Part shown: positions 45,206 to 48,330 of the stretch, piece after piece | How the letters are laid out: each line of letters starts with the position of its first letter | Numbering within the stretch: the stretch's first letter is position 1 | Assembly (NCBI RefSeq): GCF_003334385.1 | Contig: NZ_QOWN01000012.1 | From: Escherichia coli | GTDB taxonomy: Bacteria; Pseudomonadota; Gammaproteobacteria; Enterobacterales; Enterobacteriaceae | Length of the DNA stretch: 64,000 bases | Direction: 5' to 3' (one strand) | Notes under the pieces: model-generated | The model's input: only the letters and a program-made list of their open reading frames with translations | The model's database searches: none | What the model was told of the DNA's origin: nothing | Translations under genes and position numbers: made by a program

Positions 45206-45784
45206 CTAAATTTCAGTATACCTTTCCTTCGCTGTAATAAAGTCGTCCGGAGTATCAATATCTAAAATTATTTCTGCATTTTCTATTTCGACGGAATAAT
45301 GATCTCCCATAAGGAGTGCCTGACGCATATTGGTGACATTGGGTCGTTGGATTGCCTGCATCAGGCATGGTTTTGACACTAAAATCGGATGGCCGGGGAT
45401 GCCATTATGGAGTGGCAGTATTGCGCCATCATTTCGTAACGACCAGATTTTTCTAAAAATATCGATGGTGAGGGTTGGCATGTCACCGTGGGTGAGAAAA
45501 CAATGTTCTGTTTGCACTGCGGGTACTGCGGCCTTGACGGATGTTAGTAAACCCTGCGCATAATCTGGGTTGTGAATAATAGTGATATTGCTCTGGTTCG
45601 CATAACGTTCGTGCAGTTCATTACCACGATAGCCGGTGACTAAAATAATTCGGCTACAAAACTGCAACGCATTTTTGATACTTGTATCAAGAATTGTTCC
45701 CTGTTCCCAGGGTAACATCATTTTCCATTGCCCCATTCTTGATGATAATCCGGCAGCGGTAATTATACAGTCGATGGCTGACAT
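45206..45784 (-). CDS. mocA: Molybdenum cofactor cytidylyltransferase MocA (YgfJ), 192 aa
   Basis: MSAIDCIITAAGLSSRMGQWKMMLPW... nucleotidyltransferase (MobA-like) motif. Confidence 0.9.
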   Translation of the reverse strand: MSAIDCIITAAGLSSRMGQWKMMLPWEQGTILDTSIKNALQFCSRIILVTGYRGNELHERYANQSNITIIHNPDYAQGLLTSVKAAVPAVQTEHCFLTHGDMPTLTIDIFRKIWSLRNDGAILPLHNGIPGHPILVSKPCLMQAIQRPNVTNMRQALLMGDHYSVEIENAEIILDIDTPDDFITAKERYTEI

Positions 45785-45886
45785 AGTGGTTCCATTATTT
45801 ATAGGGGCTAATAACGCCTGATAATTGCGTTACTTCCTGATGGATTAAGTTGGGGATAATTTATCCCAGAGAGGTCATAAAGACTC

Positions 45887-46657
45887 GTGAAAAGTATAGT
45901 TGACCCATCGGCATTAGTCATTGATTTAGGTGCGCAGAAACGTCCCACTGTGATTTCTGTTGTTGGTGCTGGGGGGAAAACCAGCTTGCTTTTTTGGCTG
46001 GCAGAACTGCTCCAGGCTAGCGGCAGGCGTGTGTTAATCACGACGACGACACATATGTTTATGCCAACGTCTCACTGGCCCGTGGTTTTCTGTCGTGATC
46101 CCGCCATGCTTCCTCATGCGTCTCTTACATCCCCCATTTCATTTTGTTTTCACAGTTGGAAAGCGAACCAGGGAAAAGTGCAGGGATTTACGCCAGAAGC
46201 GATTGATGCACTGGTGCAACGACCAGAGTGTGACGTAATTCTCATTGAAGCAGATGGCTCGCGTGGAATGCCGTTAAAAGCGCCTGATGAGCACGAACCT
46301 TGCATACCCAAAAGCAGTTGCTGCGTGATTGCTGTGATGGGAGGACATACTTTGGGCGCGAAAGTGAGCACAGAAAATGTCCATCGCTGGTCGCAGTTTG
46401 CTGATATTACCGGGTTAACACCTGATGCAACCTTGCAACTGAGCGATCTCGTTGCGCTGGTTCGCCACCCTCAGGGGGCGTTTAAAAACGTACCGCAAGG
46501 TTGTCGGCGAGTCTGGTTCATTAACCGTTTTTCTCAATGTGAGAATGCGATTGCACAAAGCGAGCTCCTTCAACCGCTGCAACAACACGACGTAGAGGCA
46601 ATCTGGCTGGGCGATATACAAGAACATCCTGCAATCGCGCGCAGATTTGTGAATTAG
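45887..46657 (+). CDS. yqeC: Selenium-dependent molybdenum hydroxylase accessory protein YqeC, 256 aa
   Basis: P-loop-like VVGAGGKTSLLF; synteny with yqeB and ygfJ. Confidence 0.85.
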   Translation: MKSIVDPSALVIDLGAQKRPTVISVVGAGGKTSLLFWLAELLQASGRRVLITTTTHMFMPTSHWPVVFCRDPAMLPHASLTSPISFCFHSWKANQGKVQGFTPEAIDALVQRPECDVILIEADGSRGMPLKAPDEHEPCIPKSSCCVIAVMGGHTLGAKVSTENVHRWSQFADITGLTPDATLQLSDLVALVRHPQGAFKNVPQGCRRVWFINRFSQCENAIAQSELLQPLQQHDVEAIWLGDIQEHPAIARRFVN

Positions 46658-46704
46658 CGGCCCGGGTATTCCGGGTTACTGAAAGGATATCCATTGAGGT
46701 TGGT

Positions 46705-48330
46705 ATGAATATTTTCACAGAGGCTGCAAAACTCGAAGAGCAAAATTGTCCGTTTGCTATGGCGCAAATTGTTGATAGCCGAGGCTCGACTCCCCGCCAT
46801 TCTGCACAAATGTTAGTGCGCGCCGATGGTTCTATCGTCGGTACAATTGGTGGCGGAATGGTTGAGCGGAAGGTGATTGAAGAGTCGCTTCAGGCATTGC
46901 AGGAACGTAAGCCGCGATTATTCCATGGACGTATGGCTCGTAACGGTGCGGATGCTGTCGGGTCAGATTGTGGAGGTGCAATGTCAGTATTTATCAGCGT
47001 CCATGGTATGCGTCCACGTCTGGTGTTGATTGGCGCGGGGCATGTCAACCGGGCGATAGCCCAGAGTGCGGCGCTATTAGGATTTGATATTGCCGTTGCT
47101 GATATTTATCGCGAAAGCCTCAATCCTGAACTATTCCCACCATCAACCACGCTTCTCCATGCTGAGTCGTTTGGTGCGGCAGTGGAAGCACTGGATATTC
47201 GCCCTGATAATTTTGTCCTGATTGCCACGAATAATCAGGATCGTGAAGCCCTCGACAAACTCATTGAACAGCCCATTGCATGGTTGGGGTTGCTGGCAAG
47301 TCGTCGCAAGGTTCAGCTTTTCCTGCGTCAATTGCGTGAGAAAGGCGTGGCTGAAGAACATATTGCCCGTTTACATGCGCCCGTTGGTTACAACATAGGT
47401 GCGGAAACGCCGCAGGAGATCGCCATCAGCGTGCTGGCAGAAATATTACAGGTGAAAAATAACGCGCCGGGTGGGCTGATGATGAAACCTTCTCATCCTT
47501 CCGGACACCAGCTGGTGGTGATTCGCGGTGCGGGAGATATCGCCAGTGGTGTGGCGCTACGTCTGTATCATGCGGGTTTTAAAGTGATCATGCTGGAAGT
47601 GGAAAAACCGACAGTGATTCGTTGTACCGTGGCGTTTGCCCAGGCCGTGTTCGATGGCGAAATGACGGTCGAAGGCGTCACTGCTCGCCTGGCAACCAGC
47701 TCTGCGGAAGCGATGAAACTTACCGAACGCGGATTCATTCCTGTGATGGTAGATCCCGCCTGTTCATTGCTTGATGAACTGAAACCGCTTTGCGTGGTGG
47801 ACGCTATTCTGGCGAAACAGAATTTGGGAACGCGGGCAGATATGGCACCAGTAACAATCGCGCTTGGGCCGGGCTTTACTGCTGGGAAGGATTGTCATGC
47901 GGTAATTGAAACAAATCGCGGGCACTGGCTCGGTCAGGTGATTTACTCTGGTTGTGCGCAGGAGAATACCGGTGTTCCTGGCAATATTATGGGGCATACC
48001 ACCCGACGGGTGATCCGTGCTCCTGCTGCAGGCATTATGCGATCCAACGTGAAATTAGGCGATCTGGTGAAAGAGGGCGATGTGATTGCCTGGATTGGTG
48101 AGCATGAAATTAAAGCACCGTTGACGGGGATGGTGCGTGGCTTGTTGAACGACGGCCTGGCAGTGGTTGGTGGTTTTAAAATTGGTGATATCGATCCTCG
48201 TGGTGAAACCGCTGATTTCACCAGCGTTTCTGATAAAGCCCGGGCGATTGGCGGCGGCGTACTTGAGGCGTTAATGATGTTGATGCATCAGGGCGTGAAA
48301 GCGACAAAAGAAGTGCTGGAAGTGGCTTAA
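46705..48330 (+). CDS. yqeB: XdhC/CoxI-family Rossmann protein YqeB (selenium-dependent molybdenum hydroxylase system), 541 aa
   Basis: Length and synteny match K-12; GxGxxG-like motifs (LIGAGHV, IRGAGDIASG). Confidence 0.85.
   Translation: MNIFTEAAKLEEQNCPFAMAQIVDSRGSTPRHSAQMLVRADGSIVGTIGGGMVERKVIEESLQALQERKPRLFHGRMARNGADAVGSDCGGAMSVFISVHGMRPRLVLIGAGHVNRAIAQSAALLGFDIAVADIYRESLNPELFPPSTTLLHAESFGAAVEALDIRPDNFVLIATNNQDREALDKLIEQPIAWLGLLASRRKVQLFLRQLREKGVAEEHIARLHAPVGYNIGAETPQEIAISVLAEILQVKNNAPGGLMMKPSHPSGHQLVVIRGAGDIASGVALRLYHAGFKVIMLEVEKPTVIRCTVAFAQAVFDGEMTVEGVTARLATSSAEAMKLTERGFIPVMVDPACSLLDELKPLCVVDAILAKQNLGTRADMAPVTIALGPGFTAGKDCHAVIETNRGHWLGQVIYSGCAQENTGVPGNIMGHTTRRVIRAPAAGIMRSNVKLGDLVKEGDVIAWIGEHEIKAPLTGMVRGLLNDGLAVVGGFKIGDIDPRGETADFTSVSDKARAIGGGVLEALMMLMHQGVKATKEVLEVA

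Follow-up and report, generated by a model that had tools for sequence, protein, structure and literature searches.

The genes mocA (ygfJ), yqeC and yqeB in the stretch of Escherichia coli DNA analysed here (64,000 nucleotides of contig NZ_QOWN01000012.1, hereafter the window) are probably maturation genes for the flanking xanthine-oxidase-family molybdoenzymes, XdhD-YgfM and XdhABC, including a step that introduces selenium. The selenium-cofactor interpretation that the initial annotation gave of this trio is supported. This reading holds, but it amounts to textbook annotation and was already known: annotations of every E. coli genome list the genes, and the selenium hypothesis dates back 18 years, so that the finding itself adds nothing new. 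What the present analysis adds is a fold model for the signature domain of YqeB, a SIMIBI-class model for YqeC, and three gene fusions. The system has gained in importance: work from 2023-2025 established that the cluster around the trio encodes the pathway by which gut bacteria degrade urate anaerobically through 2,8-dioxopurine, a pathway of relevance to gout. Of all routes of biological selenium use, the entry of selenium into molybdenum hydroxylases has been called the least understood. With its σ54-controlled XdhC::YqeB fusion, E. coli is a tractable host for settling how selenium is inserted.

The locus, its promoters and its probable target enzymes

An open reading frame listing shows the three genes exactly where the initial annotation had placed them (45206-48330), with the MocA-type gene divergent from the two others; coordinates, strands and the K-12 annotation agree. 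mocA occupies 45206..45784 on the minus strand (192 aa). On the plus strand, yqeC (45887..46657, 256 aa, GTG start) encodes a P-loop NTPase and yqeB (46705..48330, 541 aa) a two-part protein. A spacer of 102 bp (45785..45886) separates mocA from yqeC. Coordinates and starts all agree with those given for MG1655 in RefSeq. Sequence identity to K-12 is 100% over the region, including the annotated mocA and yqeB, and of the 5426 complete E. coli genomes, 5176 carry mocA-yqeC-yqeB.

Scans of 44500-48800 for RNA families, tandem or inverted repeats and sigma-70 promoters remained at background level. In the 102-bp spacer, the sigma-70 consensus scan gave weak matches only, and their number (7 sites for 4.9±2.4 expected) is not significant. 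For sigma-54, the consensus scan of the whole window gave 49 matches for 43±7 expected. The pattern alone is therefore powerless, and sites were retained only where they coincide with published ChIP-seq peaks. Those of the cluster are located at ygfK, at ygeW and inside yqeC. The last one, TGAGCACGAACCTTGCA (46288..46304, plus strand), drives yqeB and is an exact and unique match to a published site validated by ChIP, promoter mutation, RT-qPCR and Western blot (PMC4591121). Overlay on the codons shows that it covers those of a conserved D-E-H-E-P-C-I motif, with conservation in Klebsiella, Morganella and Aeromonas. This internal promoter couples the expression of yqeB to the pathway's sigma-54 regulon. 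The promoter of ygfK-ssnA-ygfM-xdhD (44957..44973, minus strand) was found by pattern match in the 321-bp spacer downstream of mocA; its sequence, GTGGTGCGATTGTTGCT, is the ChIP-seq site listed for ygfK (PMC4591121). At the other end, a GC-rich hairpin (48339..48364, no strand assigned; 10 pairs, 8 of them GC) between the convergent yqeB and yqeA (arcC) is likely to act as a bidirectional terminator.

The genes of the target enzymes, xdhD (36758-39628) and xdhABC (56796-60458), are uninterrupted. The continuity of XdhD and XdhA, which the initial annotation had judged by eye, was borne out, both having their full annotated lengths (956 and 765 aa), as have XdhB, XdhC, YgfK (1032 aa) and the other ORFs of the cluster, including ygfM. 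The absence of in-frame TGA codons had also been presented as consistent with selenium use at the level of the cofactor. The ORFs are indeed uninterrupted; a missing TGA is nonetheless not diagnostic of such a use, as it shows no more than that these enzymes lack selenocysteine and says nothing in favour of a selenium-containing cofactor. The reaction catalyzed by XdhD-YgfM is the reduction of urate to 2,8-dioxopurine (PMC12507026). Active XdhD has been purified from E. coli, selenium supplementation not being mentioned in the available part of that article (PMC12507026), an observation that counts against the selenium reading.

Family placement and gene fusions

Families were assigned with the NCBIfam equivalog models TIGR03310, TIGR03172 and TIGR03309, and all three proteins score above the curated cut-offs. 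In particular, the profile search suggested in the initial annotation puts YqeB and YqeC beyond the cut-offs of "selenium cofactor biosynthesis" equivalogs, and not in unrelated families.

MocA matches TIGR03310 over positions 1-187 of 188, with 214.2 bits for a cut-off of 186.45 (E 1.5e-63). Its translation carries at residues 8-18 an N-terminal nucleotide-binding motif of the TAAGxSxRMG type, ITAAGLSSRMG. This type of motif is said to have been presented by Neumann et al. in 2011 as a CTP-specific variant of the LAGG motif of MobA. The distant PDB relatives of MocA are MobA/MocA-related proteins, and MobA models match it weakly in profile searches. As a first step, MocA transfers CMP from CTP onto Mo-molybdopterin, yielding the molybdopterin cytosine dinucleotide (MCD) cofactor; this step has been shown experimentally for the identical K-12 protein, as PMC2997495 relates with reference to Neumann et al. 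(2009). MocA is a general CTP:molybdopterin cytidylyltransferase common to all MCD enzymes (PMC2997495), and therefore no selenium marker. The trio as a whole had been taken as characteristic of selenium systems. This is supported for YqeB and YqeC by their equivalog scores and by publications on this locus; it does not extend to MocA, and genetics has so far lent YqeC no support.

YqeC scores 240.9 bits against TIGR03172 (cut-off 73.05, E 1.2e-71) and belongs to Pfam PF19842 (E 5.5e-42). A Walker A sequence, GAGGKTS (residues 27-33, 45965-45985, plus strand), and a Walker B-like sequence, LIEADG (residues 119-124, plus strand), are readily recognized; in the homologue alignment, G27, G29-T32, L119, E121, D123 and G124 are invariant across phyla. 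The protein models as a SIMIBI-class P-loop NTPase, a fold matched best by SRP-type GTPases and not by metallochaperones. Searching solved structures by sequence returned no relatives. The cysteine of its His-Glu-Pro-Cys motif is invariant in 24 proteobacterial sequences. It was considered as a family-wide ligand of selenium or metal resembling those of UreG and HypB, and rejected as such, being replaced by valine outside Proteobacteria (Moorella, Azotosporobacter, a spirochaete and a metagenomic homologue).

YqeB has two halves. The N-terminal one (residues 12-247, 46738..47445, plus strand) contains XdhC/CoxI-type Moco chaperone domains (Pfam XdhC_CoxI, E 9.8e-20; XdhC_C, E 1.2e-32), with PDB entries 2we7 and 3on5 as relatives. 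It would bind and protect the finished cofactor and insert it into the apo-hydroxylase, as may be proposed by homology with Rhodobacter capsulatus XdhC and E. coli PaoD. The C-terminal half (residues 271-526, 47515..48282, plus strand) is the TIGR03309/EF2563 signature domain. Within the full protein, it matches positions 1-256 of 256 with 417 bits for a cut-off of 220 (E 2.8e-125), and it scores 420 bits when searched on its own. Judged from its Pfam domains, YqeB is a predicted member of the XdhC/CoxI superfamily, yet no XdhC equivalog, as its score against TIGR02964 (110.8 bits) is below the cut-off (161.6). The description "XdhC/CoxI-like Rossmann protein" of the initial annotation is hence adequate for the N-terminal half and fails for the part that defines the family, residues 271-526. 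This signature domain models as a Rossmann-like subdomain plus a barrel-sandwich-hybrid (biotinyl-like) subdomain. No relatives were retrieved when solved structures were searched by sequence with this half, and no cysteine or lysine of the domain is conserved in the homologue alignment. Its invariant residues include D15, R43, E139 and R142, and H144 is nearly so (domain numbering; 263 is to be added for positions in the full protein). A role of the barrel as biotin/lipoyl carrier was discarded, the conserved modifiable lysine being absent from the hairpin tip. The idea of a duplicated XdhC Rossmann domain was also discarded, hhalign matching only the first β-strand and the glycine loop (probability 1.75%).

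Sampling of neighbourhoods at 10 related loci shows that the clustering is reproduced in Firmicutes, Negativicutes, Spirochaetes, Beta- and Gammaproteobacteria. Three pairwise gene fusions were found, YqeC::MocA, MocA::YqeB and XdhC::YqeB, and they tie the parts of the module together. In Moorella, the YqeC::MocA fusion lies beside yqeB, xdhC and a molybdenum hydroxylase gene. At another of the sampled loci, the MocA::YqeB fusion comes directly after yqeC and a molybdenum hydroxylase gene. The XdhC::YqeB fusion occurs in E. coli, Klebsiella, Aeromonas and Morganella (the window and loci L009-L011), with a conserved order ygfK<-mocA<->yqeC->yqeB. A separate xdhC adjoins yqeB in L007 and is 1.9-2 kb away in L003 and L005. 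yqeC adjoins yqeB in the window and in L003, L005, L006, L008, L009, L010 and L011; none was found within 10 kb in L002 and L007.

These observations bear on the role of YqeC. According to a second view, which we regard as unlikely, YqeC would be no selenium factor; it would be to MocA what MobB is to MobA, an adaptor of the P-loop NTPase type that is dispensable and helps the nucleotidyltransferase to pass the dinucleotide cofactor on to its chaperone, and YqeB alone would be selenium-specific. The Moorella YqeC::MocA fusion, the SIMIBI-class fold of YqeC, a class that includes MobB and the metallocentre NTPases, and the xdhC-yqeB pair of L007, with no yqeC within 10 kb, speak for it, as does the rapid divergence of YqeC (40-53% identity where YqeB retains 62-83%). 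In addition, MobB is dispensable in E. coli. In parallel, deletion of yqeC in Clostridioides difficile gave no phenotype (PMC11448449), and published analyses state that YqeB and YqeC may each also serve processes unrelated to selenium. Homology of YqeC with MobB was rejected: YqeC gave no match to the MobB model (TIGR00176) in the profile search, and hhalign with E. coli MobB covers 28 columns around the P-loop (probability 10.5%).

The proposed selenium step

Selenium was proposed for this very locus by Haft and Self (2008; PMC2276186), who also noted that extended molybdenum-hydroxylase loci, among them the 23-gene region of E. coli, bring the YgfJ and YqeC families together with TIGR03309. 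Published co-occurrence profiles span 500 to 5200 genomes, the YqeB/YqeC/SelD trait having been mapped across 5200, and already answer the question of co-occurrence. Anaerobic urate use by Proteobacteria requires molybdenum and selenium. The C. sporogenes enzyme DOPDH, encoded by xdhAC, catalyzes the same reduction of urate as E. coli XdhD; YqeBC and SelD are present in all urate-cluster strains of the corresponding study. In the literature searched, no labile, cyanolysable selenium at the Mo centre is reported for E. coli XdhD or XdhABC, and up to mid-2026 no biochemical activity is reported for YqeB or YqeC.

With a validated probe, selD was found neither in the window nor within 4-10 kb of yqeB/yqeC in the 10 sampled loci. 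The link to selenium accordingly rests on the genome-wide co-occurrence of the literature and not on adjacency. K-12 carries selD elsewhere in its genome. As an independent test of the link, selD adjacency is uninformative.

The E. coli module might also be imagined as an ordinary sulfur-type Moco chaperone system. YqeB would then act only as a chaperone of the XdhC/PaoD kind, the MCD received from MocA being sulfurated by a cysteine desulfurase and inserted, and selenium would be a correlate of anaerobic purine-fermenting lifestyles and not a function. We consider this improbable. It agrees with the N-terminal half of YqeB being a bona fide XdhC-family protein, with the molybdoenzyme literature, where YqeB is simply the second XdhC homologue of E. 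coli (PMC2997495), with the absence of reports of selenium in the E. coli enzymes, and with selD being adjacent in none of the sampled loci. However, it leaves unexplained an extra domain of 270 residues whose E. coli version shares 55-63% identity with those of Moorella and spirochaetes, and which is usually a separate protein beside a separate XdhC. It is also opposed by the restriction of TIGR03309 to selD-positive genomes (PMC2276186), by the ΔyqeB mutant of C. difficile, which phenocopies ΔselD on xanthine and urate (PMC11448449), by the inactivity of C. sporogenes DOPDH purified from a ΔselD strain, and by the spirochaete locus L008, where yqeC-yqeB is followed by a gene of the EF2568-type cysteine desulfurase/selenocysteine lyase.

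In the preferred reading, with a selenium step, comparative genomics and clostridial genetics suggest that, with the cofactor on the chaperone, the C-terminal domain of YqeB would replace or install the labile terminal Mo chalcogen as selenium, using selenophosphate made by SelD, where a NifS-like desulfurase brings sulfur in ordinary XdhC systems. YqeB has been proposed as a chaperone common to XdhD and XdhABC (PMC2997495). In the weakest step of the scheme, binding or hydrolysis of NTP by YqeC may gate or assist the hand-over between MocA and YqeB; YqeC itself may be dispensable. A point against the preferred reading is that the alignments show no family-wide cysteine able to carry a perselenide in either the YqeB signature domain or YqeC. 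On a bolder and rather unlikely reading, the three pairwise fusions would point to a single MocA-YqeC-YqeB-XdhC assembly line for cytidylylation, selenium insertion and chaperoning, selenium being placed on the dinucleotide cofactor before it enters the enzyme. Given the missing cysteine and the lysine-less barrel, selenium would then pass directly from selenophosphate to Mo, with no protein-bound perselenide. If true, this chemistry would differ from NifS/XdhC sulfuration.

Comparison with known systems

The window's genes form the same locus as K-12 mocA (ygfJ, b2877), yqeC (b2876) and yqeB (b2875), which are the markers of the "selenium cofactor trait" (Haft and Self, 2008, PMC2276186; Zhang et al., 2008). 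The genes themselves do not differ; the yqeB-yqeA spacer does, K-12 having a second copy of the hairpin and a 180-bp REP-containing insert, and the window having the short allele without this insert.

The MobA/MobB pair likewise combines a nucleotidyltransferase, of the superfamily to which MocA belongs, with a small P-loop NTPase, as do MocA and YqeC, which are paired and sometimes fused. YqeC has only the P-loop in common with MobB, and the likeness is kept as an analogy. MobA/MobB, which makes bis-MGD, uses GTP and serves the DMSO reductase family, whereas the MocA system uses CTP and serves the xanthine oxidase family. In contrast with the SIMIBI metallocentre NTPases UreG, HypB and CooC, YqeC lacks a Cys/His motif for binding metal or selenium that would hold across the family.

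The closest parallel to YqeB is offered by R. capsulatus XdhC and E. coli PaoD, which have the XdhC_CoxI and XdhC_C domains in common with its N-terminal half. A similar role would be expected for YqeB, namely binding of the mature cofactor, exchange of the terminal chalcogen and insertion into the apo-enzyme. Unlike these proteins, YqeB carries the 270-residue domain fused to it and is not co-transcribed with a hydroxylase. The chalcogen would differ as well: sulfur from cysteine through a NifS-like enzyme for XdhC and PaoD, selenium from selenophosphate, as proposed, for YqeB.

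Organization and conservation of the mocA-yqeC-yqeB locus

The three genes lie exactly where the initial annotation had placed them. mocA (ygfJ; 45206-45784, minus strand, 192 aa) is divergent from yqeC (45887-46657, plus strand, 256 aa, GTG start) across a 102 bp spacer, and yqeB (46705-48330, plus strand, 541 aa) follows yqeC after 47 bp; all three ORFs coincide with RefSeq features. The trio is flanked by the known purine/urate cluster, with ygfK-ssnA-ygfM-xdhD-xanQ-guaD-ghxQ on one side and yqeA(arcC)-hyuA-ygeY-ygeX(dpaL)-ygeW, ygeV and xdhABC on the other. The cluster ORFs are uninterrupted and at annotated length. 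The reported lack of in-frame TGA codons is not diagnostic of selenium use at the cofactor level.

The window is chromosomal E. coli DNA; from 45000 to 48500 it shows 100% identity with K-12 MG1655 and with numerous other strains. This segment is matched in 5176 of the 5426 complete E. coli genomes of the ecoli_genomes collection and has no match in 250, while 5148 retain 80% or more of the 25-kb cluster region. Loss of the module, complete or partial, therefore affects about 5% of strains.

A GC-rich hairpin (48339-48364) separates the convergent yqeB and yqeA genes. Their spacer (48331-48370) is devoid of a 180-bp segment carried by K-12 MG1655 (15352-15531 in the comparison locus L001) and by every 100%-identical genome. 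In addition to two REP-like palindromes, this segment contains the terminator hairpin GGCCGGATGGTATTACCCACCCGGCC once more, so that a direct repeat flanks the insert. The short allele was found in 41 and the long one in 19 of 60 genomes in a rank-spread E. coli sample. Elsewhere in the window, a 644-aa ORF (29998-31932, plus strand), 34% identical to the C-terminal half of YgfK (residues 458-849), probably represents ygfT, the oxidoreductase gene of formate-dependent urate utilisation.

Family assignment and domain structure

Families were assigned using NCBIfam equivalog models with curated cut-offs, together with Pfam. MocA scores 214.2 bits against TIGR03310 (cut-off 186.45), YqeC 240.9 bits against TIGR03172 (cut-off 73.05) and YqeB 417 bits against TIGR03309 (cut-off 220), the latter over residues 271-526. 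YqeB and YqeC are thus not placed in unrelated families. In Pfam, YqeC corresponds to PF19842. The description of YqeB as XdhC/CoxI-like holds for residues 12-247, the only ones covered by Pfam (XdhC_CoxI and XdhC_C), but not for the signature half, residues 271-526, which lacks a significant match in Pfam as well as any PDB relative at the sequence level. The XdhC-like half reaches 110.8 bits, under the XdhC equivalog cut-off of 161.6. From this domain arrangement, E. coli YqeB is a fusion of an XdhC-type chaperone with the YqeB/EF2563 signature domain.

Homologues of the signature domain number in the thousands, most of them stand-alone proteins (265-300 aa), and those from lineages as distant as Moorella, spirochaetes and Comamonadaceae still share 55-63% identity with E. 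coli. Divergence is much more rapid in YqeC and MocA. In Klebsiella, Aeromonas and Morganella, respectively, identity to E. coli is 53, 40 and 47% for YqeC and 53, 45 and 52% for MocA, as compared to 83, 69 and 68% for the N-terminal half of YqeB and 74, 68 and 62% for its C-terminal half. Invariant residues of the signature domain are mainly Gly, Asp, Glu, Arg and Lys, with one nearly invariant His; in the homologue alignment, the hairpin has no conserved lysine and no cysteine is invariant. A possible origin of this domain as a duplicate of the XdhC Rossmann domain was also considered; no duplication was detectable.

A σ54 promoter within yqeC

A σ54 promoter for yqeB located within yqeC has been validated by ChIP, promoter mutation, RT-qPCR and Western blot, YqeB being undetectable in the promoter mutant (PMC4591121). 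The published site maps to 46288-46304; of the σ54 sites known from ChIP-seq, that of ygfK falls at 44957-44973 and that of ygeW at 54593-54608, both on the minus strand. Therefore, yqeB shares a σ54 regulon with the structural genes: the urate pathway and yqeB are under σ54, with mocA and yqeC outside those transcripts. This control presumably acts via YgeV, encoded at 54978-56756.

The promoter overlays the codons of the most conserved YqeC peptide, D-E-H-E-P-C-I-P, GAG CAC providing the -24 GCAC and CCT TGC ATA the -12 TTGCA. GAACCTTGCAT is identical, synonymous positions included, in Klebsiella aerogenes, Morganella morganii and Aeromonas veronii, where YqeC is 40-53% identical. The HEPC cysteine is confined to proteobacteria; in Firmicutes and one spirochaete, the motif has Val (GTN) in its place and no σ54-like match. 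The proteobacterial cysteine may be held partly by the -12 GC of the promoter.

Selenium link and putative mechanism

TIGR03309 was found only in selD-positive genomes, often as a fusion with XdhC, and in E. faecalis and H. marismortui it adjoins an orphan selD; YgfJ and YqeC were proposed as co-clustering candidates, the 23-gene E. coli region being named explicitly (Haft and Self, PMC2276186). Later surveys used SelD, YqeB and YqeC as the marker of a 'Se-cofactor trait' (PMC5029168). In C. difficile, a ΔyqeB mutant behaves like ΔselD on xanthine and urate, whereas deleting yqeC has no phenotypic effect (PMC11448449). Purified from a ΔselD background, the C. sporogenes enzyme that reduces urate to 2,8-dioxopurine has no activity, and YqeBC and SelD occur in every strain with the urate cluster (bioRxiv 2025.04.24.650524). 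E. coli XdhD-YgfM is reported to catalyze the same reaction, the remaining cluster genes completing the urate pathway (PMC12507026), and anaerobic urate use by Proteobacteria required added Mo and Se (bioRxiv 2022.12.12.520169). A validated SelD probe detected no selD in the window, and none in the 4-10 kb around yqeB or yqeC in ten related loci. It is thus genome-wide co-occurrence and genetics, rather than gene adjacency, that carry the selenium link. On this basis, the published proposal that the trio forms a selenium cofactor system is supported, the selenium form remaining putative in the E. coli hydroxylases; MocA is generic, and YqeC, whose deletion gave no phenotype, is a candidate member. 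A plain sulfur-type chaperone role of YqeB in E. coli, as its XdhC-like half could suggest, is improbable beside the clostridial genetics.

Neighbourhoods elsewhere tie the modules together. The order ygfK-mocA-yqeC-yqeB, with the same divergence, is kept in Klebsiella, Aeromonas and Morganella. Moorella thermoacetica (L003) has xdhC genes, a 455-aa YqeC::MocA-like fusion (8525-9892) directly 5′ of yqeB; an XdhD-like hydroxylase and YgeX-, HyuA- and YgeW-like genes come next. A metagenomic contig (L005) carries a 462-aa MocA-like::YqeB fusion (5550-6938) directly 3′ of yqeC and an XdhD-like hydroxylase, with xdhC close by. Other orders are yqeB-yqeC-MoCF_biosynth-mocA-σ54 activator-amidohydrolase-XDH (Azotosporobacter), XDH-permease-MoCF-xdhC-yqeB (a JGI contig) and, in a Comamonadaceae MAG, a mocA-like gene 1.6 kb 5′ of yqeB, then a ygeV/Y/W/X-hyuA-yqeA block. 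In a Sphaerochaetaceae MAG (L008 7958-10649), yqeC-yqeB precede an EF2568-type cysteine desulfurase/SclA-like selenocysteine-lyase-like gene (349 bits against TIGR01977, just below the cut-off of 377); genes for a hydroxylase, MocA or XdhC are absent from this 16-kb contig. The existence of three distinct pairwise fusions (YqeC::MocA, MocA::YqeB and XdhC::YqeB) strongly indicates that the MocA, YqeC, YqeB and XdhC modules act together.

In the proposed mechanism, MocA makes MCD, as reported from experiments on this CTP:molybdopterin cytidylyltransferase (PMC2997495). By homology, the XdhC-like half of YqeB would hold and insert the cofactor. Co-occurrence and clostridial genetics suggest that the terminal Mo ligand would require the signature domain to take its selenium form, the selenium being derived from SelD. 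Universal cysteines are absent from the signature domain and YqeC, which speaks against selenium being relayed as a perselenide on these proteins. The trio is an already annotated, published locus that had been read correctly. In the literature searched, neither YqeB nor YqeC has a reported structure or biochemical activity; their biochemistry is interesting, and the present finding does not advance it.

The weakest step concerns YqeC, which would assist in an NTP-dependent manner, perhaps on the MocA side, and might be dispensable. A selenium-independent, MobB-like role is unlikely, though less so than the sulfur-type role of YqeB. The YqeC model (pLDDT 89.6) is that of a SIMIBI-class P-loop NTPase, best matched by FtsY, SRP54 and FlhF, then by MinD/ParA, Get3, UreG, HypB and CooC, whereas the likeness to MobB is confined to the P-loop.
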